Positions 1,205 through 31,919 of a stretch of DNA of 36,573 bases are shown here, piece after piece (positions within the stretch are counted from its first letter, which is position 1; each line of letters opens with the position of its first letter). The position numbers and the translations under genes were made by a program. Location of the stretch: IMG/VR virus record IMGVR_UViG_2728369393_000013. One strand, written 5' to 3'. Under the pieces are notes generated by a model, which made no database searches, was not told where the DNA came from, and was given only the letters and a program-made list of their open reading frames with translations. The stretch is from a virus (Duplodnaviria; Heunggongvirae; Uroviricota; Caudoviricetes).

Positions 1205-1759
1205 AAAATAATCTCGGTGTGAGATGCTTTACGTCTTCCAAGCCCCCTTCCTTGCCGTAAATGGAAAGATACATCTAATTATAGAATTTATATGTTTTAC
1301 CCTACGGCAGTGCTGGCCATTCAATATCCTGTGCAGTTGACGTATCAACACGGTTCAGCAATACCCGATACTTTTTCCATGCTTCCAGCAACGAGATTTC
1401 TTCCTCCGTTGCAATTTCCAGATCTGCAGCATCCTGAAGCGGCGCAATATGCTCACTGGCTACCTGCATCAGGTTGTTTTTTGTTTCTTCCGCCTCCCGG
1501 ATCCGGAACAGTTTTTCTGCTTCTGCATCTTTCACCCAGGCTGTGCCGTTCCACTTCTGAAACTCCCCTTCCGGCGATAACCAGGTAACATTTTCCGGTA
1601 ACGGACCGAGTTCAGAAATAAATAACGCGTCCCCTGACGCTACGTCATAAACCGTTTTACCCGATGGTCTTCAACGAGATGCCACGATGCCTCATTGAGG
1701 TAGCCTGAGTTTAACGGACACTCCTTCCTGAAATAGAATGGCATCAGAAGGAGCTAATA

Positions 1760-2062
1760 ATGAGCAGAAAAACCCAACGTTACTCTAAAGAGTTCAAAGC
1801 CGAAGCTGTCAGAACGGTTCTTGAAAATCAACTTTCGATCAGTGAAGGCGCTTCCCGATTATCTCTTCCTGAAGGCACTTTAGGACAATGGGTTACCGCC
1901 GCCAGAAAAGGGCTCGGTACTCCTGGTTCCCGCACGGTGGCTGAACTGGAATCTGAAATTCTGCAACTGCGTAAGGCGTTAAATGAAGCTCGCCTTGAGC
2001 GAGATATATTAAAAAAAGCAACAGCGTATTTTGCACAGGAGTCGCTGAAAAATACGCGTTAA
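1760..2062 (+). CDS. IS3-family transposase OrfA (HTH, leucine-zipper region), 100 aa
   Basis: MSRKTQRYSKEFKAEAVRTV... typical IS3 OrfA; ends just upstream of OrfB with slippery heptamer near 3' end. Confidence 0.85.
   Translation: MSRKTQRYSKEFKAEAVRTVLENQLSISEGASRLSLPEGTLGQWVTAARKGLGTPGSRTVAELESEILQLRKALNEARLERDILKKATAYFAQESLKNTR
2022..2028 (+). promoter_or_regulatory. Programmed -1 ribosomal frameshift slippery site AAAAAAG for OrfAB fusion transposase
   Basis: A AAA AAG motif in the orfA/orfB overlap region, the canonical IS3-family frameshift signal. Confidence 0.6.
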
Positions 2063-2916: not shown

Positions 2917-3142
2917 AAAAAGAACAAATGGTAGTGTCCGCTATTGCCAGTACACCTCACATCACTGTTGAAAACAGCCACAAAGCCAGCAGGAATATCT
3001 GGTGGTGCAATATCGGTACTGTTTGCTGGCAGACCTGTATGAGGCGGAATATATGCGTCACCTTCACCAATAAATTCATTAGTTCCGGCCAGCAGATTAT
3101 AAATTTTTATGGTCCGTGGTTGTTCACTCATTCTGAATGCCA

Positions 3143-3973
3143 TTATGCAAGCCTCACAATATAGTTAAATGCGATGTTTTTGACGGTGTTTTCCGTGTTA
3201 CCAGCAGCGTTAACGGTGATGGTGTGTCCATGTGAACCAATCGCAACGGAGTGCGTATGAGCACCAATACCGACAGTATGCGCGTGTGCACCTGCAGATG
3301 CTGCTGTGCCGGACAGTGAGTGGCTATGATTACCATCTGTACTGGTATTAGCTAACCACCCCGTAGACATACCTACTGAGCCTTGTACACCCCAGGTATT
3401 TTGACCTGAGCTTGTATAACCATATTGATAAGTATCTTTAAAAACACTGGGGTTAAATCGACGGCCATCTCTATGGCTGTGATTACCAGCTGCATTCGTG
3501 CTGCCACTTAAACTATGGGTATGCGCACCAGTGTTATTCGTGGATTTAGTGCCGTAATCAAACGACGATGTGGTTTTCGTCCCCAAATCCGTACTGGATG
3601 CGCTGGCGCTGTGGGTATGCGATTTAATGCCGTCCTGTTCCTGAGACAATACGGCCCGACCACTGGCAGGTTTGCCCTTAATCGTCCAGCCACGCATATC
3701 AGGGATCACGCCTGACGGATAAGCCGCTGCAAGTTTCGGGTAGGCAGATTTGTCAAAAGTCTGCCCCTGCATCAGGGCATAACCAGACGGAACGGTATCT
3801 GATGGCCACGGGATTGGTGCACCGACTGGATAAAACTCTGCAGGAGGATGAGCTGAGGTGTAAAGCTGCGCCCACGGCGACCAGTTTGCGTCGGTCGTAT
3901 CCCGTCGTGAACGAATAAATGCCGGAGCATGAGCACCGCTTGTATCCGGACGTGCTGACATCCTGTCCGGCAA
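3143..3973 (-). pseudogene. stf: Side tail fibre (stf) C-terminal receptor-binding remnant, 276 codons, lacking the N-terminal shaft
   Basis: Gly/Ser/Thr-rich sequence with repeated HxH motifs (GAHTHS, GNHSHR, GNHSHS, GAHAHT, GAHTHS, GSHGHT) typical of phage tail fibre tips; stop overlaps tfa start; upstream frame is the gene I remnant rather than stf N-terminus. Confidence 0.7.
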
Positions 3974-18742: not shown

Positions 18743-18919
18743 CTAGATTAAATCAATCTTGATATCATAGCTTTCAAGACCAGTCATTTTTTCCCGTGCA
18801 GTAAACTGGATACTGGTAACTTCTTTCCCGGTCTTTTTCTTAAGCTCAATGATTTTTTTTGTTATATATTCAGAAATATCTGCTTCTGTTTTTGTTTTTA
18901 ACTCTTCAATGTTCATCAT
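18743..18919 (-). CDS. gnsB: GnsA/GnsB-family small protein (about 57 aa)
   Basis: MNIEELKTKTEADISEYITKKIIELKKKTGKEVTSIQFTAREKMTGLESYDIKI resembles GnsB; AGAGGA SD before tandem ATGs at 18919/18916. Confidence 0.7.
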   Translation of the reverse strand: MMNIEELKTKTEADISEYITKKIIELKKKTGKEVTSIQFTAREKMTGLESYDIKIDLI

Positions 18920-19390: not shown

Positions 19391-19590
19391 TTCACTTTCT
19401 TAAATCTAACGACAGACGGCTAACATTTAAGTATTGTGAAATATTATCAAATGCAATCATCATTGATTTACAAAAGATACATTTTGCCCCGAAAGGATTC
19501 CTGTCAGAAACATCAAAAGATGATGTTCTATACTGAGAACCATGGCAACACGGGCATCTAAAGTGAATATGGTTTGTAATATTTTCTACC

Positions 19591-19803
19591 TCAAAGTGCC
19601 ACAACATGAACAGCCGCGGGGCCTTTAGGTCCGTTCTCAATACCAAATTCGACTTCCTGATTCTCAGTTAACGTTTTGAAATCGTTGCTCTGAATAGCTG
19701 AGAAATGGACAAACACATCTTTGCTACCATCTTTCGGCGTGATGAAACCAAAACCTTTTTCAGGGTTAAACCATTTCACTAAACCAGTCATTTTGTTAGA
19801 CAT
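19591..19803 (-). CDS. cspI: Cold shock protein, CspA family (70 aa)
   Basis: [38 protein letters not shown]... canonical CSD with RNP motifs. Confidence 0.9.
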
Positions 19804-20166
19804 CATTATTACCTTTTGAAGAAGTTAGCCCTTGGGCAGAATGGTCCGAAAAAAAATATCAGAGAGAAAAACCAACAAGGAAATCTCAAGAGGTACAAAT
19901 AATAAAATTATAACAATGACTGCTTCAGATAATTTTGTAACAAACCAGAACACCATTAACGCATGATTAACCAACCATAGCAAGGATTACTTTTGTAAAG
20001 AAAAACACACGAATGAAACAATAGCTTTATTTATTAATAAAACGTGTCATTCTGTCTAATGACCTTTTATCTTACCCTTAAGATTTCAAGGATTTTGACT
20101 CATGGAAGAGTCCTTTTTATTTAAATTTCACATTCAGCGCTAAAAATAATCCGATTTAATATTAAT

Positions 20167-22760: not shown

Positions 22761-23039
22761 TATTGTGGTGCTTTTTGTGGGAGTCATCCACTTACGCACT
22801 TTGTTTTGCTATGCTAGCAGTTAGCTTCTGCTGTAAAACTATTCATGCAGCAAACCTGCACTTCACCACAATGGTTAGCATACTTTTCCTGATTAAGTTA
22901 TTGCCAAATATGCTGGCCATTGTTTCATGTATTGGATCTCCTTACTATTTATTAAAGAGATCCAATATTCACCACTCTGTCTGTATCTCCACTCAGGCAT
23001 CAGCCTTCTTCGTTATCGTATACAGACAAACTATTAATT

Positions 23040-23255
23040 TTAATCAGTAATTATGACATTTGCTGCTGCAGGACCTTTAGCACCACTCTCTACAGAGAAG
23101 GTAACCTTTTGACCTTCAAATAAGGTTCGAAAATTATCATTCTGAATCGCAGAAAAATGCACAAACACATCTTTACTACCATCAACAGGAGAAATAAAGC
23201 CAAAACCTTTATCAGCGTTAAACCATTTTACTAAACCAGTCATTTTATTTGACAT
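23040..23255 (-). CDS. cspB: Cold shock protein CspB-like (71 aa)
   Basis: [53 protein letters not shown]... Confidence 0.9.
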
Positions 23256-23555
23256 TCTACATTCCTTAACTTGAGCCTTTCGGCATAAATGGCTTGTATA
23301 ACAGAAACGACTTCGTACTTAATTGGAGAGACTCAAAGAAGGAATAAGTGAATAACACCTGAAATGAGAACTGCTTTAGTAAACTACTTCGTATATCGTC
23401 TGTTCTTCAAACCGACGCAATCATTAACGCATAGTTGAACATATGAAGCAATGTTTATTTTAGACATCCAGCCATCTTCAACCCCATCAAAAAACTATAG
23501 CTTTCTTCAGGAACGTGTGTATAGTGCGCCAAGTTATCAGTATTAAGGAATTTTT

Positions 23556-23768
23556 TTGTCCCGTAAAATGACAGGAATTGTCAAAACCTTTGACGGCAAA
23601 AGCGGCAAGGGTCTTATCACCCCATCCGATGGTCGTATCGATGTCCAGCTTCATGTTTCAGCGCTCAATCTCCGCGATGCAGAAGAAATTACCACCGGAT
23701 TACGCGTGGAATTTTGCCGGATAAATGCTCTGCGTGGCCCTTCAGCTGCCAATGTTTACCTTTCATGA
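23556..23768 (+). CDS. cspF: Cold shock domain protein CspF/CspH-like (70 aa)
   Basis: [41 protein letters not shown]...; divergent from cspB as in Qin. Confidence 0.85.
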
Positions 23769-24060
23769 GCTATATTAAAGCTTTAATTTCAGGCCCCATC
23801 GGATCACACATGGAGAGTTTTTATGAATAACCCCGTCTGTCTTGATGACTGGTTGACTGGCTTTAAAAGCTTATGCTGTACTTTGGCCGTAATAGCTCTG
23901 CTAATAATATAATAAGCAGACTCATTGTGTTTAGGGACATTGTACTGGAAGAAAACATTTTAAACATCAGGCAAATAACCAAGTCACCAGCTAAATAATA
24001 AGTTAACAGACATGAGTCCCGGGATGAGATTCAACATTACCATTGCCCCATTTAAAGCAC

Positions 24061-24090
24061 AAAACCCGCTCATCAGCGGGTTTTCTACTT
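24061..24090 (+). terminator. Rho-independent terminator (CCCGC/GCGGG hairpin plus T-rich tail)
   Basis: AAAACCCGCTCATCAGCGGGTTTTCTACTTTTT seen directly. Confidence 0.55.
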
Positions 24091-24537
24091 TTTCTTAACC
24101 TCGGGTATACAAAGCCCATCGTTGAAAAAATTTTATCCATATTTTTTGAAAAATGCAAGCATCACGTTACCATCTTCATTGAAAAACCTTTATCGTGTTA
24201 CTTTTATCAATTGCACTTCAGTATAGAGTTATCCCAGACAGCACTTTAAAGACTTCTACATTACACACACCTTGTCTCCCCTTCTCGTCATATCTGCAAG
24301 ACCGATATGCATGACGCAGTACATACGCTGAACTGCTTTATCCATCTGCATATTCTAGTGCTAAAGCGACTTCAGTAGCAGAAGCAAAATTCTGCTACTG
24401 TGCCAAACAGGAGTAAACGTCATTTTATGTAATGTTGATTGAGTGGTCATAGTATCACCTCAATAACAACTCTCCGCCCTATCATTGAAAGCATATCTGC
24501 TATAATTAAAAAGCCACTTAACATCAGGACTTCAAAC

Positions 24538-24723
24538 ATGACTTCAAATCAATCTGAAAACGAAATAGTTAATACTGTCAAAAAATATGCATCATGTGCT
24601 GACGATGCTTTGCAGGGAGGCAAAGAAAACGTTAAAGATAAATTTAGAAATTATCCACTGACTAGCGTGGTGGTTGCTCTAAGCATAGGGTTAACGCTTG
24701 GTTTTATTATTGGCAGAAAATAA
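24538..24723 (+). CDS. Small tail-anchored membrane protein, DUF883 (ElaB/YqjD)-like C-terminus (61 aa)
   Basis: Hydrophilic N-terminus then NYPLTSVVVALSIGLTLGFIIGRK TM anchor; ATG at 24538; hairpin terminator downstream. Confidence 0.45.
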   Translation: MTSNQSENEIVNTVKKYASCADDALQGGKENVKDKFRNYPLTSVVVALSIGLTLGFIIGRK

Positions 24724-24775
24724 TCTTAAGCCTCCCATAAGTCGTACACAATCACATCTGCCAATTAATGTTCCA

Positions 24776-24808
24776 TTAGTAAAAAACCACCTCCTGTGGA
24801 GGTGGTTT
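24776..24808 (-). terminator. Rho-independent terminator, strong on minus strand (CCACCTCC/GGAGGTGG hairpin plus T6), weak on plus
   Basis: AAAAACCACCTCCTGTGGAGGTGGTTT seen directly. Confidence 0.6.
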
Positions 24809-24859
24809 AAGGATAGCAACAAAACACAACCTACTTTAAACGGCTATATTCTGCTATAT

Positions 24860-24979
24860 CTAAATAATAGGATCTCTTTTATCATCCGGTGAAAAAGGGT
24901 TCAATGGTTGCCCCTCATCAGGACGCTCAACGGGCTCATCATCAGGCTTACGGTCATCAAAATCTGGATGTTCTGACAT
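24860..24979 (-). CDS. Candidate micro-ORF, acidic proline-rich (39 aa)
   Basis: ATG preceded by GGGTGGA SD; MSEHPDFDDRKPDDEPVERPDEGQPLNPFSPDDKRDPII; followed by minus-strand terminator. Confidence 0.3.
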   Translation of the reverse strand: MSEHPDFDDRKPDDEPVERPDEGQPLNPFSPDDKRDPII

Positions 24980-25014
24980 ATTCCACCCTAGTATTTTTAT
25001 GCAGGAAAGATTAT

Positions 25015-25122
25015 TTACTCTTTCCGGTTGTCTTTTTTATTATCCTTACCCTTACTATCCTCATTGTTTTTATTCCTGTCATGAGATTTTTCATTTGAAT
25101 CACTTACATATAATGTATTCAT
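25015..25122 (-). CDS. Candidate micro-ORF, Lys/Asn/Asp-rich hydrophilic (35 aa)
   Basis: ATG preceded by GGAG SD; MNTLYVSDSNEKSHDRNKNNEDSKGKDNKKDNRKE. Confidence 0.3.
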   Translation of the reverse strand: MNTLYVSDSNEKSHDRNKNNEDSKGKDNKKDNRKE

Positions 25123-25883
25123 GGGGACTCCAGTTTTTTAACAGCACAATGCTGTATCTGTAATTATAGATGCAATTAATCATTATGATATGTATGTTTC
25201 ATGCACAAATCAGAAACGCATCTAGTGCTTTAATTAATATGGATTTTATTGCTGTAGATTTACAAAAATTTTCATAATTAACCAGCAATATAAGACAAAT
25301 ATCTCATAACATGAGGAAAATCAAGCTAATTTAAAGCAATTTATAATTTTCATCCTACTGTTTTCCCTGCACTGCCAACACAAGTTTCATCGCAACACTC
25401 TGACAAGACACCTATAAAATCAGTTTCGTTATCACCTTAATTTTCTTCATGGGTAACAAACCGGTAATACATCGATAGCCAGATTTCCGGCGTAAGCCAT
25501 TTATTTGCAGCCTGATTGATGCGCGTTACTGTTACCTCTTCCCTGCATCAGGATGGCTTCTCCAGATGATATGGTTAATCACACTGGAACATTCACGCAT
25601 AACCGTTTCCTTCATATCCTGCCGTTTTAGCATGTCTTTTCCCCTTCTTGTTAATATCAATAACTAACACAAATCTAAAAAAGCCAGCAATGTAAAAAAA
25701 CTGCATTCACGGCAACCATAATGGTTACCGTTCTGCACAAAGTTTATGTCCACAAAAAAACCACTCTGCGCGGCTTATTGATATTTTCCACCGGTATGCA
25801 TATAAGGCTCATCATTGGAAAACTCTTTGCACGTTTCCTTAGAAAATACAATCGTTATGTCGCCATCGTTCGGTGAAAATCAT

Positions 25884-26636
25884 TTATCTCGTCACTTTTC
25901 TTAATTGCACCTCAGCATATGCTTCTTCCTGCCAGCACTTTGTAACCAGTTTATCAATGACATCTGCATATCCTTTGTACCACTGATAATCCGTCAGGTC
26001 TGGTACCAGCTTCTGGACATGACACCGCGCCAGTGTCGTTGGTAAACGACTAAACCGGTTTCCATTGCAACGCCCACAAACCTTATAAACAGGCGTGCTA
26101 TGAAGCCGGGTTCTTTTTTCATCCAGGACAATACCTTTCCCCTTACACCCTCTGCACGCTGTGCTGACTTCTCCCTTACCATGGCAATGCTGACATAGTT
26201 CCTTCACCCACTCTTCCTTGATAACAGATTCCCCACTTCTGGAGTGTTTCACCACTTCGCGCAATACATTATGAAATCCAGTACCAGCACAATACTCACA
26301 GCGAGCCTTACTTGCCGCAGACCTGGAATAATCAGCAAAGGCAAAATTCACAAGGTAAGGGATGATCTGTAACCGGATTTCTTCACTCAATTTGTTCAAT
26401 GTCGGATTATCCATTGCCATCGCGTAATTGAGCAGACCTTCAATCGCAAACTGAGGATCCTGAACACCAACTTTTGCCAGGAATAAGGCAAAACCAAGCG
26501 GAGCTTTCGACTGCACCATCCCCTGCGCAGCCATCACATCTGTTATTGTTAAACCACCCGAGCCTGTCGCCGGTGCGTCATCACTCAATTTTGGAGATTT
26601 TGGGGAGTAATATTTTGGTAAAGCTTCAAGGTTCAT
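25884..26636 (-). CDS. quuQ: Late-gene antiterminator Q (250 aa, zinc-finger type)
   Basis: Cys-rich motifs (CEYCAGTG, CQHCHGKG, CRGCKGKG, CGRCNG); length and position upstream of lysis region. Confidence 0.8.
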   Translation of the reverse strand: MNLEALPKYYSPKSPKLSDDAPATGSGGLTITDVMAAQGMVQSKAPLGFALFLAKVGVQDPQFAIEGLLNYAMAMDNPTLNKLSEEIRLQIIPYLVNFAFADYSRSAASKARCEYCAGTGFHNVLREVVKHSRSGESVIKEEWVKELCQHCHGKGEVSTACRGCKGKGIVLDEKRTRLHSTPVYKVCGRCNGNRFSRLPTTLARCHVQKLVPDLTDYQWYKGYADVIDKLVTKCWQEEAYAEVQLRKVTR

Positions 26637-26649
26637 GCTCGTTCTCCAC

Positions 26650-27645
26650 TTACGCCAGTACGCCTATTGCCAGCGCACGATCGATAAAACGAAATATCAG
26701 CTCCAGCTGGGAGCCATAATTCTCTTCAAATGCCACGGTATTCGCATGCAGCTCGTCGTGATGCTTTCTGCACAAAGGCAACACAAAAAGGTCATGCGCT
26801 TTTGTACCCATTCCACCCTGACCGTGGCCTATCAGGTGGTGGGGATCATCAGCGGGCTTTCCACAACATGCACACGGCTGTGTCTTAACCCAGCGCGTGT
26901 ACTTTTCATTAACCCAGCGGCGACGTTTTGGGCGTAACATAAAAGACTCCGGCGACTCCGGATCCACTTTCAGCGCCAGCACCTTTTTCGCTTTATCCTG
27001 GATGATGCTGGTGGCAGGAACCGAAGGCACAAGGTCACTTTCCCGGGTGACAGACGGCACAACAGGCTTCGGTAATCTCAGTGCCTTACGGGCTGCACTT
27101 TCCGGTAAGGCATCCGCCAGGTCATTACGAACCAGCCACCAGCACAGTTCCGGCATTGTCACTACGTGACTGTCATCAAAACCGAGATCCCGACGCACGA
27201 CAGATAACACCCAGTGGGCACAGTTATCCGTTGCCATTGATTCCAGCCGTTCCGTGAACTGATCACGCAACTGGTTATCGCAGTGCCAACACAGACGGAT
27301 TGCGCCCGGCGCGTGTCGCATTGTGGTCATGTTCTCGCTGTGCCAGTCGGAATGAGGCCACTGACAGCCCTTTTCACGAAGTAACCAGCTTTCAAGACAT
27401 TCCACGCCACCAGCACGACGGATCACTGCCTCATTGCGGAACACGGCCCGAACGGCAGGATCATCCGCCAGCGGTTGTGATGCCGCCGGAACGGCACCAC
27501 TGGCGAAAGATGAATAACGTTCCGGCTCAGGCTCCAGCAGGACACGCCCCTGCATAAACAGGGGCATCAGCTCTGAACCTGGCCTGAACAATACGATCCC
27601 CATACGCGGGGCAATTTCAGGGGTCAGTAGTGCTCTCACGGTCAC
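26650..27645 (-). CDS. ydfU: DUF968-family protein (YdfU-like), C-terminal Cys/His-rich HNH-like region
   Basis: C-terminal CACCGKPADDPHHLIGHGQGGMGTKAHDLFVLPLCRKHHDELH; adjacent to Q as ydfU is in Qin. Confidence 0.6.
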   Translation of the reverse strand: MTVRALLTPEIAPRMGIVLFRPGSELMPLFMQGRVLLEPEPERYSSFASGAVPAASQPLADDPAVRAVFRNEAVIRRAGGVECLESWLLREKGCQWPHSDWHSENMTTMRHAPGAIRLCWHCDNQLRDQFTERLESMATDNCAHWVLSVVRRDLGFDDSHVVTMPELCWWLVRNDLADALPESAARKALRLPKPVVPSVTRESDLVPSVPATSIIQDKAKKVLALKVDPESPESFMLRPKRRRWVNEKYTRWVKTQPCACCGKPADDPHHLIGHGQGGMGTKAHDLFVLPLCRKHHDELHANTVAFEENYGSQLELIFRFIDRALAIGVLA

Positions 27646-31090: not shown

Positions 31091-31919
31091 GACGATGCCC
31101 TCCGCTGATATTCAGGAAACGGTGAATATGAAGATTAGCCTTATCCGCCAGACGAATACGTTCAGCCTGCAAGTTAAGAAGGGTTTCTACCAGAACCTGA
31201 TGCGCCTGCGGATCCGAAAGAGTTACCTTGCGCAGAGCACGTAGTGCAGTTGTTACATAGCTGAGTTTATGTAAGTCTTCATCATTCAGACGAGTGAGGG
31301 CTGGGACAGTAGCCATGATGGCAGCCTCCGTATGCAATGGATAACTTCCACCACCGGAAACGCCAATTTCGCTGGTGGTGAACTGAGCAGGGTTGGCGTA
31401 ACCGGCGCATACGGAAACCGGCGCACCTTTCGGTGCCCCCACCCAGCCCACCATAATTTGGGTATAGCTGAGTTGTAGCAACAAAAAAGACGCTAACGCG
31501 CCAATTGTCGCCGTATGCAATTCCAGGACGCCAATCCCGGCACCCGCTTTATAAGGTGCCTGAACAGTGTAACGTCCCGGAATGGCAGAATCAATGTGCT
31601 GGTGGTCCTTCACACTCAACAAAATCACGCCTGAATTTCCACAAAGGGCTAAAGCACTCATGCGGGTAGTCTTTGCGAAGATAGATAACGCGCTGTGTTT
31701 CTGGCTCCCAACGAATAACATGAACATAAAGTCCTCTTCCGTCACGAAACCAGCGGTTAAGTTCCTGCACAACTCGCCCCCCACAGTCAGGTAAAGTTCT
31801 CTGTGGTTACTTACAGCCAGGAGATTTGGTAATCTGCATTCATGCCGTAACAACAGGTGTTCAGCGACGCTGACCACCAGCTGTTGCGACAAACGGTTAT
31901 TTGCCGTTAAACTGTTCAT
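31083..31919 (-). CDS. Hypothetical protein (278 aa) in replication module
   Basis: Long ORF in operon orientation; no motif recognised by eye (no Walker A). Confidence 0.45.
   Translation of the reverse strand: MNSLTANNRLSQQLVVSVAEHLLLRHECRLPNLLAVSNHRELYLTVGGELCRNLTAGFVTEEDFMFMLFVGSQKHSALSIFAKTTRMSALALCGNSGVILLSVKDHQHIDSAIPGRYTVQAPYKAGAGIGVLELHTATIGALASFLLLQLSYTQIMVGWVGAPKGAPVSVCAGYANPAQFTTSEIGVSGGGSYPLHTEAAIMATVPALTRLNDEDLHKLSYVTTALRALRKVTLSDPQAHQVLVETLLNLQAERIRLADKANLHIHRFLNISGGHRHA

Follow-up and report, generated by a model that had tools for sequence, protein, structure and literature searches.

A putative moron cassette encoding three small proteins in the late region of a Qin-like Escherichia coli prophage

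What is a cluster of three very small genes doing downstream of the Q antiterminator gene of a lambdoid prophage, where the late promoter PR', the qut site and the terminator tR' are expected? The question is raised by a stretch of 36,573 nucleotides (nt; IMG/VR record IMGVR_UViG_2728369393_000013), here called the window and meaning the stretch at its full length, which is a Qin-like lambdoid prophage of Escherichia coli with its late genes on the minus strand. An initial annotation had described at this place a DUF883-like tail-anchored protein and two micro-open reading frames (micro-ORFs) led by Shine-Dalgarno (SD) sequences, and had proposed either small stress proteins or a Q-controlled leader transcript. 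A check of the sequence and its open reading frames (ORFs) confirms the position of every feature named there, namely the ORFs of 61, 39 and 35 amino acids (aa), the terminator and an upstream hairpin. We consider it fairly probable (roughly 60%) that the cluster is an autonomous moron, that is, a mobile cassette of ~0.8 kb in the late region that encodes three small proteins, is probably expressed in the lysogen from sigma-S-like promoters, and is read through by late transcription.

Two convergent units under purifying selection

The cassette consists of two units that converge on a single hairpin terminator, with orf61 on the plus strand facing a bicistronic orf35-orf39 unit on the minus (late) strand. 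Its parts are the following (pI, isoelectric point; GRAVY, grand average of hydropathy; PGAP, Prokaryotic Genome Annotation Pipeline).

24470 to 25290 (approximate): the mobile cassette common to Enterobacter-type prophages, as the limits of alignable sequence
24500 to 24510, plus strand: -10-like element of orf61 (C-TATAAT-TAAA), ~30 nt upstream of the ATG, from the upstream alignment
24538 to 24723, plus strand: orf61, a 61-aa C-tail-anchored protein (PGAP WP_000203370.1, 'hypothetical'; phrog_11629)
24776 to 24808, minus strand: shared (bidirectional) intrinsic terminator of the convergent orf61 and orf39, with an 11-bp perfect stem (24784-24794 / 24798-24808)
24860 to 24979, minus strand: orf39, a 39-aa acidic, proline-rich micro-protein (pI 4.1)
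25015 to 25122, minus strand: orf35, a 35-aa highly charged, K/N/D-rich micro-protein (pI 8.1, GRAVY -2.5)
25128 to 25169, minus strand: orf35-orf39 leader, with C-TATAAT (25169-25163), the hairpin ACAGCA-N3-TGCTGT (25155-25141) and the SD GGAG (25131-25128)

At the DNA level, the central ~0.8 kb (about 24470-25290) has no match in E. coli genomes, phages and plasmids besides a generic terminator hairpin (blastn, 'distant' mode), and a word-indexed protein search with all three ORFs returned near-identical copies only. As to whether the micro-ORFs are conserved at the amino-acid level in related prophages, on which the initial annotation had made their reality depend, the tblastn search that it proposed found homologs of both in Enterobacter wuhouensis (orf39, 55% identity, E = 1e-12; orf35, 42%, E = 7e-5), conserved and in the same order. 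The E. wuhouensis contig repeats the whole arrangement, with an orf61 homolog, a hairpin terminator, and orf39 and orf35 homologs on the other strand, and scans with the orf39 alignment added 16 further loci from metagenomes and IMG/VR. We refer to the window-type cassette as type 1 and to these 17 loci (E. wuhouensis L031 and the 16 metagenomic or viral loci) as type 2. The cassette in these Enterobacter-type prophages has 34-59% amino-acid identity to that of the window, in the same order and in the same orientation relative to late transcription.

Coding constraint is evident both between and within the two types. The orf39 homolog (45 aa) is 59% identical in the alignment and differs from orf39 by an 18-nt in-frame indel, and the comparison of the window with type 2 gives proportions of synonymous (pS) and non-synonymous (pN) differences of 0.50 and 0.20, a dN/dS of about 0.28 (Fisher, p = 0.005). 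The orf35 homolog (41 aa) is 31-42% identical and has the same start context (CTGGAGT..CCC ATG), with a pS of about 0.95 and a pN of about 0.35. Composition-preserving shuffles scored as well as the real alignments in 0 of 5000 cases for orf39, 16 of 5000 for orf35 and 0 of 5000 for orf61. Across the 17 type-2 loci, the orf39 homolog occurs as four DNA haplotypes that encode one protein (3 synonymous changes, 0 non-synonymous), the orf35 homolog has 1 synonymous and three conservative amino-acid changes as well as an in-frame insertion of 6 nt (L059), and the orf61 homolog shows about 11 synonymous and 5 non-synonymous changes, indicating purifying selection. Variable sites in type 2 make up 2.2% of the orf39 homolog, 4.0% of the orf35 homolog, 6.4% of the orf61 homolog, 6% of the leader and 0% of the terminator versus 17-22% of the non-coding flanks (ORF versus flank, p = 5e-6 to 3e-8), and the flanks carry 1- and 2-nt indels, whereas the indels within ORFs (18 nt, 6 nt) are in frame. 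Together, these comparisons show that each of the three ORFs is a genuine gene that codes for a protein and is under purifying selection.

The same data bear on the view that the micro-ORFs are chance ORFs, meaningless frames in AT-rich junk left by a recombination scar, which we regard as highly improbable. It is true that remnants of Rha, ren-like and Q genes lie in the surrounding insert (described below), that the micro-ORFs have no family matches and are not called by PGAP, and that their polymorphisms among type-1 loci are all non-synonymous. Against this, the micro-ORFs are conserved in synteny (31-59% identity) in a way that keeps their frames, starts and SDs and is significant against shuffles; their variability is three- to ten-fold below that of the non-coding flanks; and the neighbouring ren-like pseudogene tolerates a 32-nt deletion (in L017-L019), whereas the three ORFs are intact in all collected loci. 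A single larger, frameshifted gene across both micro-ORFs was also considered and rejected, since both frames and both start contexts are separately conserved in the homologous cassette.

With respect to the proteins themselves, orf39 has 8-10 prolines and the conserved motifs MS..PDFDD, EGQP and PDDKRD, and half of the residues of orf35 are charged (pI range 8.1-9.9). Both are extremely hydrophilic and, judging from their composition, probably disordered. Neither has a match in Pfam, NCBIfam, PHROG or PADLOC, and for orf39 there is no PDB profile match either. PGAP calls orf61 only, the micro-ORFs being called only in a few GenBank submissions and by phage annotators that over-predict. Because of their opposite charges and co-transcription, we speculate that orf35 and orf39 may act as a pair. 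A run of six A (25029-25034) inside orf35 differs by 1 nt in some public assemblies, giving either an altered orf35 C-terminus (P0011) or a 73-aa fusion ORF that runs into orf39 (P0003); either genuine phase-like variation or a sequencing error in the homopolymer could account for this.

Placement between two copies of a Q-linked module

Relative to the Qin prophage of E. coli K-12, the cassette of the window lies in an insert whose surroundings are listed here from Q leftwards.

25884 to 26636, minus strand: Q antiterminator (QuuQ/YdfT-like, 250 aa; Pfam PF03589, E = 4e-50; PGAP name ydfT)
24248 to 25883: insert versus K-12 Qin, 1.69 kb, made up of the cassette, decayed gene fragments and the upstream promoter copy
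25758 to 25883, minus strand: copy A of the module, apparently decayed (-35 TTGTAT, 25851-25846; AAAGAG at the -10 position, 25828-25823; hairpin, 25776-25758)
25420 to 25632, minus strand: ren-like / mEp460_052-like pseudogene, frameshifted (from translations and from blastn matches to ren and to the part of mEp460 that lies downstream of Q)
24268 to 24462, minus strand: Rha/antirepressor gene fragment, N-terminal part (79% DNA identity to Rha / P22AR-C genes)
24190 to 24247, minus strand: second-Q remnant, the last ~18 codons (…EVQLIKVTR and an in-frame stop; from repeat D1 and translations)
24061 to 24189, minus strand: copy B, an intact late-promoter-like module (-35 TTGCAT, 24158-24153; -10 TAAAAT, 24135-24130; terminator, 24084-24061)
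23556 to 23768, plus strand: cspF, with cspB, holin, lysozyme and rzpQ further left

The insert is bracketed by a diverged direct repeat, D1 (24061-24247 and 25758-25941, offset 1694 nt). This repeat includes a module composed, in order, of a -35 TTGCAT, a 17-nt spacer, a -10 TAAAAT or TAAGAT, ~55 nt, and a strong hairpin with a U-tract, which is common to K-12 Qin, an O111 prophage, strain EC19 and phage mEp460, and which we infer to be PR'/tR' because of where it lies and because it is conserved together with Q. Copy A (25758-25941) comprises the genuine 3' end of Q and the sequence downstream of it, with a weak hairpin (-7.8 kcal/mol, z = +0.6), and copy B, with a strong one (-23.9 kcal/mol, z = -7.6), is a close match to K-12 Qin and a looser match to O111/mEp460 over the promoter and terminator elements. 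Given that both the -10 and the greater part of the hairpin are lost from copy A, copy B, 1.7 kb from Q, is probably the functional late promoter, which would place the small-gene cluster between Q and the probable late promoter. The copy B hairpin doubles as the plus-strand terminator of the cspF unit, and a 29-aa hydrophobic ORF, annotated by PGAP and kept in K-12 Qin, directly follows cspF (23823-23912, plus strand).

The expectation that the cluster itself would hold PR', qut and tR' was thus not borne out, as the Q-linked module maps to 25758-25883 and 24061-24189 instead. This bears directly on the proposal of a Q-controlled leader, by which the micro-ORF transcript would be the PR' leader, comparable to the lambda 6S RNA or StxS, and the hairpin at 24776-24808 would be tR'. 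The unit does lie downstream of Q on the late strand with a strong intrinsic terminator at its end, as 6S RNA and StxS do, and short PR' RNAs can gain functions, as StxS did (PMC7547250). The probable homolog of the PR'-tR' leader element is, however, present twice in the window, apart from the micro-ORF unit, and related Q genes (K-12, O111, EC19, mEp460) have the module without micro-ORFs. The unit also differs from 6S RNA and StxS in its sequence, in its length of ~380 nt and its two ORFs, and in being separable from Q, with the homologous unit of Enterobacter-type phages following the lysis genes, after Rz and far from Q. Since it lies between the module copies here and far from Q elsewhere, the micro-ORF unit cannot be the Q-loading leader, and we consider this proposal extremely unlikely.

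The insert shows the presence and absence among close relatives that is seen for lambdoid morons. In K-12 Qin, TUM1226 and other relatives, cspF is joined directly to Q without it, and the segment 24400-25900 is present in 42 of 5426 complete E. coli genomes, 40 of which hold nearly all of it at identities of at least 99%. Two isolated phages, PhiR63_1 and HannyBb, have the identical arrangement, which is therefore compatible with a viable phage. In loci L017-L020 the insert is less diverged than its flanks, with 97.2% identity over 23400-25485 versus 94.5-94.9% across 25509-26700. The region 24450-25350 has a G+C content of 27-38% versus 43-59% from Q leftwards into the early region, and the csp cargo next to the cassette is likewise AT-rich.

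Three gene fragments, all on the minus strand, are recognized in the insert by blastn in 'distant' mode. The ren-like match spans 25371-25483 (minus strand), and 25603-25757 (minus strand) is homologous to the region upstream of mEp460 gene 052, which itself lies downstream of Q in mEp460. The N-terminus of the ren-like pseudogene resembles mEp460 gene 052, and a different frame resembles Ren. The Rha/antirepressor 5' fragment adjoins the second-Q remnant (24190-24247). In the window, the cassette arrived as part of a 1.69-kb mosaic insert that lies between two copies of the Q-3'/late-promoter/terminator sequence.

In type-2 phages the cassette is found elsewhere. The gene order there is holin, lysozyme, Rz, a 65-aa 'NEWEDEGG' ORF, the orf35 and orf39 homologs, the orf61 homolog (opposite strand), a GnsA/GnsB-family gene (PF08178, E = 4.5e-23) and the small terminase (PF03592), so that the cassette occupies the Rz-to-gnsB/terminase site in 16 type-2 loci versus the site between Q and the late promoter in the window. 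The flanking lysis and terminase genes of type 2 range from 30% to 100% identity versus 93-100% for the cassette proteins. In both phage groups the micro-ORFs are on the late strand and orf61 is opposite. The cassette is thus found at a different cargo hot spot in each of the two phage groups. Presence or absence among close relatives, AT-richness and differing positions in different phages are all properties of morons, and all three are observed here.

This is in line with the known lambdoid morons (lambda bor and lom; Qin cspB, cspF, cspI and gnsB), which likewise are AT-rich inserts in the late region with promoter-like and terminator elements, present or absent among close relatives, and which use the same two classic cargo sites, Q-to-holin and Rz-to-terminase. 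As with bor, the direction of orf61 is opposite to that of late transcription, and the cassette neighbours such cargo (gnsB in type-2 phages, cspF and cspB in the window). Unlike the known lambdoid morons, it encodes two micro-protein families of 35-45 aa that belong to no database family together with a mini tail-anchored protein, and it has a convergent two-unit design with a shared terminator.

Candidate signals and expression of the two units

The terminator between the units had been claimed to be a strong one on the minus strand, and this holds up, with the stem and its flanks at -24 kcal/mol (z = -3.4) being followed by six U on the minus strand. On the plus-strand side of the 24784-24808 hairpin there are three U only. 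A consensus scanner overlooked the 24776-24808 terminator only because A/U pairs lengthen its stem. In type 2, the corresponding position is taken by a hairpin of another sequence (AAACCGCCTAAGGGCGGTTT), which is invariant among the 17 loci. Over 23300-26100, Rfam at E <= 1 gave chance-level matches only.

The upstream hairpin ACAGCA-CAA-TGCTGT, also reported initially, is present at 25141-25155 and taken alone is no better than shuffled sequence (z = 0.0); we regard it as meaningful because it is conserved in the divergent homologous cassette. The alignment upstream of orf35 (window, tCTATAATTAcagatACAGCAttgTGCTGTtaaaaaaCTGGAGTccccATG; type 2, aCTATAATAAacatACAGCAattTGCTGTcattatcaCTGGAGTtacccATG) retains a -10-like hexamer with C at -13, the stem of 6 bp and the SD, and shows differing loops. 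Within the stem, a single substitution is seen (G for A in L041 and L064), which still allows a G-U pair. A LexA box was considered for the palindrome ACAGCA-N3-TGCTGT and rejected, as the half-site orientation is wrong. The claim that both micro-ORFs are SD-led stands for orf35, with GGAG 5 nt before the ATG (25131-25128), and less well for orf39, the site of which is weaker (GGGTGG). For orf61, the ribosome-binding site is AGGA, 8 nt before the ATG.

Upstream of five orf61-family genes, the only conserved block is the -10-like one (CTATAATTAA, CTATGATTAA, CTATACTTAA (twice) and CTATACTGAA), with the consensus CTAT(A/G)(A/C)T(T/G)AA in five genera, ~30 nt ahead of the ATG. The sigma-S extended -10 consensus has C at -13, TATACT and TAA, and we take the orf61 block to fit it as a putative promoter. 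Neither unit has a recognizable -35, and each has a C(-13)-TATAAT putative -10. For a moron that should have its own promoter and terminator, the terminator is thus well supported and the promoters are conserved -10 motifs only.

From these elements, the expression of an autonomous moron can be sketched as follows. Each unit would be driven by its own putative promoter resembling sigma-S-dependent ones, and if these are sigma-S promoters, the repressed prophage would express the cassette in stationary phase or under stress; it is from promoter motifs and by analogy that we infer such stress or stationary-phase expression. The orf35-orf39 mRNA (about 380 nt) would begin at or just before the conserved hairpin and end at the 24808-24776 terminator; with a start of transcription ~7 nt past the hexamer, the hairpin would be at the 5' end of the mRNA or beside it. 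Hairpins at the 5' end are known to stabilize mRNAs, and the leader hairpin may do so here. During lytic growth, antiterminated transcription would also cross the micro-ORFs, because they are on the late strand in both genomic contexts. The orf61 protein is predicted to insert in the inner membrane via a DUF883_C-type glycine-zipper tail anchor, presenting a cytoplasmic helix of ~38 residues, and would function as a miniature counterpart of ElaB/YqjD/YgaM, inner-membrane-tethered proteins that act in stress or bind ribosomes, accompanied by basic orf35 and acidic, proline-rich orf39 as candidate intrinsically disordered micro-proteins.

The late-strand position admits another reading, by which the cassette carries phage-directed accessory genes, with the micro-proteins, and perhaps orf61, being made mainly in lytic growth on the antiterminated late transcript and serving, for example, lysis timing, membrane superinfection exclusion or the countering of host defence, not the stress tolerance of the lysogen. 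In its favour, orf35 and orf39 are on the late strand in both contexts, by Q/PR' or by the lysis cassette and terminase, the micro-ORFs are found in prophage contexts only, and lysis-associated genes also occur at late-region cargo sites. Yet the unit has its own conserved -10, leader and terminator, which late genes do not need, and the cassette of the window would lie upstream of the functional late promoter if copy A is dead. In addition, there is no functional match in PADLOC or PHROG, and orf61 homologs are found in chromosomal islands too. We consider a phage-directed role unlikely.

The par (Fst) locus and several type I toxin-antitoxin systems of prophages are also laid out as convergent units with a shared bidirectional terminator. 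Accordingly, orf61, which is small and predicted to insert in the membrane, could be a toxin, with the convergent ~380-nt RNA acting as its antisense via the terminator region and the micro-ORFs being incidental; with three U only in the plus-strand tail, read-through antisense to orf39 is conceivable. Unlike in par/Fst, though, the convergent transcript codes for two proteins under purifying selection, the orf61 and orf39 transcripts are complementary in the terminator hairpin only, and orf61 homologs persist in four other lineages without the convergent unit. The protein-level constraint on orf39 (dN/dS 0.28, 3 synonymous and 0 non-synonymous changes, in-frame indels) and the conserved SDs and start codons of both micro-ORFs do not suit an antisense RNA, nor do the long hydrophilic N-terminus and DUF883_C-type anchor of orf61 resemble typical type I toxins. 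A type I system is, in our view, very unlikely.

Several observations weigh against the autonomous moron that we favour, or against parts of it. TATAAT is not rare in DNA of 33% G+C, and the promoters, the start site and the sigma-S dependence are read from motifs. The micro-ORFs are known as two diverged alleles only, so that their statistics amount to one deep comparison plus shallow polymorphism. Furthermore, orf35 is compositionally biased and in type 2 shows 3 non-synonymous changes versus 1 synonymous, and frameshift variants in its A6 run exist in some assemblies. Among 18 near-identical type-1 loci, the single-nucleotide polymorphisms (SNPs) are D36E in orf39, S13T and S23G in orf35, and two non-synonymous and one synonymous in orf61, with changes in Q and cspF at the same loci being mostly synonymous; all three micro-ORF SNPs are thus non-synonymous (3 versus 0), in a sample too small for judging selection on the micro-ORFs. 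Because orf61 homologs exist without micro-ORFs, in Leclercia, Atlantibacter, Silvania and type-3 viral contigs, the three genes need not act together. Finally, orf61 fails the Pfam thresholds and has neither the DUF883 N-domain nor the characteristic Trp, which makes a transfer of YqjD function weak, as set out below.

The orf61 family and the wider cargo of the prophage

The description of orf61 as a DUF883-like tail-anchored protein is upheld for the C-terminal anchor only. Its C-terminal end is hydrophobic (PLTSVVVALSIGLTLGFIIGRK; GRAVY +1.44), and the AlphaFold model, of low to moderate confidence (predicted local distance difference test, pLDDT, 68), has a helix at 4-38, a break at Tyr39/Pro40 and a helix at 40-60. 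Against Pfam PF19029 (DUF883_C), orf61 scores 12.3 bits (E = 0.14), under the cut-off of 27, and its homologs score 11.8-17 bits; the DUF883 N-terminal domain, the ribosome-binding part, gives no Pfam match to orf61 at E <= 10. A profile comparison with E. coli ElaB/YqjD/YgaM (hhalign) gives 88.4% probability (E = 2.8e-6) over 28 columns, confined to profile columns 37-64. In the orf61 family alignment, which ends in GRK or GRR, P40, G55, G59 and R60 are invariant, and the Trp that follows the Pro in the subfamilies of YqjD, ElaB and YgaM is absent, with Leu, Ala, Thr or Arg in its place. We therefore describe orf61 as not demonstrably a member of the DUF883 family, and as resembling a tail-anchored DUF883 protein at its membrane end. 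A PDB profile search with orf61 returned noise only, and a literature search found no paper mentioning WP_000203370.

ElaB, YqjD and YgaM are tail-anchored proteins induced in stationary phase, with RpoS dependence documented for ElaB and YqjD (PMC6389858; bioRxiv 10.1101/2024.08.16.608256), and the DUF883 hallmarks according to Njenga et al. are a helix-breaking Pro before the transmembrane (TM) helix, Gly residues in it, and a terminal RK/RR (bioRxiv 10.1101/2024.08.16.608256). Like these proteins, orf61 has an extreme C-terminal TM helix after a helix-breaking Pro, glycine-zipper spacing, a terminal RK/RR and a helical, presumably cytoplasmic N-part, and the -10 upstream of it resembles sigma-S promoters, in keeping with the RpoS dependence of ElaB and YqjD (PMC6389858). 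It differs in size (61-82 aa in the orf61 family versus about 101-109 aa), in lacking the DUF883 N-domain that mediates ribosome binding in YqjD, in the replacement of the conserved Trp (by Thr or Leu, for example), and in its location on prophages and islands, without yqjE/yqjK neighbours, instead of in the core genome.

Distant orf61 homologs were found at 36-57% identity, with an exhaustive HMMER search giving 36-50%, and an alignment-based scan of species-representative genomes placed them in Leclercia, Atlantibacter, Silvania and E. wuhouensis. With orf61 alone as query, a first scan of the genome collection gave no match, and tblastn of the type-2 orf61 against isolated phages recovered only the two type-1 phages. 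The solo homologs occur in chromosomal islands (in Leclercia, beside ars genes and an integrase-like ORF). In an unrelated viral contig, L089, an orf61 homolog (53% identity, 1795-1974, plus strand) is located downstream of a Q homolog (39% identity, about 3052-3800, minus strand), and members of the orf61 family may land recurrently in the gap that separates Q from the late promoter. Next to the orf61 homologs of Enterobacter-type prophages, of Leclercia/Atlantibacter islands and of type-3 contigs there is a further ORF of 62-65 aa with the motif (Q)EEW..S.NEWEDEGGA (L065, 1879-2076; L026, 2591-2779; also L089-L091). This ORF, which is absent from the window and without matches in Pfam or PHROG, may represent a further small-protein family that is not annotated.

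Elsewhere in the window, Rfam cspA-thermoregulator matches above the gathering score at 22977-23416 and 19545-19961 (both minus strand) correspond to the cspB leader and a second csp leader, so that the late region carries several cold-shock cargo genes; a gnsB-family ORF is located at 18746-18916 (minus strand). In the early part of the prophage, adjacent Rfam matches to C4 antisense RNA (31371-31458, minus strand) and to the Hfq-binding RNA IsrK (31483-31559, minus strand), both above their gathering scores, suggest an antisense-controlled antirepressor region of the P1/P7 type. A match to Rfam IS009 (1336-1534, minus strand; 221 bits) is far above its gathering score.

The finding overturns no current model. 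It adds to the catalogue of prophage cargo two conserved and mostly unannotated micro-protein families (35-45 aa) as well as a short DUF883-like tail-anchored family, and provides a clean example of cargo movement, with duplicated Q-3'/late-promoter modules at the borders and, in another genus, the use of the other late hot spot. The cassette is found in pathogenic lineages, including O121:H19 and O103 Shiga toxin-producing E. coli strains. Of the small stress proteins proposed initially, the conserved small proteins are borne out, and the stress part is argued from promoter motifs and analogy. A more specific picture, in which a mini DUF883-type protein and a basic/acidic pair of micro-proteins form a stress module that, from convergent sigma-S-type promoters, alters the lysogen's ribosome or membrane physiology during stationary phase, strikes us as doubtful. 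If true, it would represent lysogenic conversion by micro-proteins, spread as a cassette between E. coli and Enterobacter phages, and each of the two micro-proteins would be the first member of a new protein family. Expression of the cassette in lysogens under RpoS control, if it occurs, would make it a tractable case of lysogenic conversion by small proteins.

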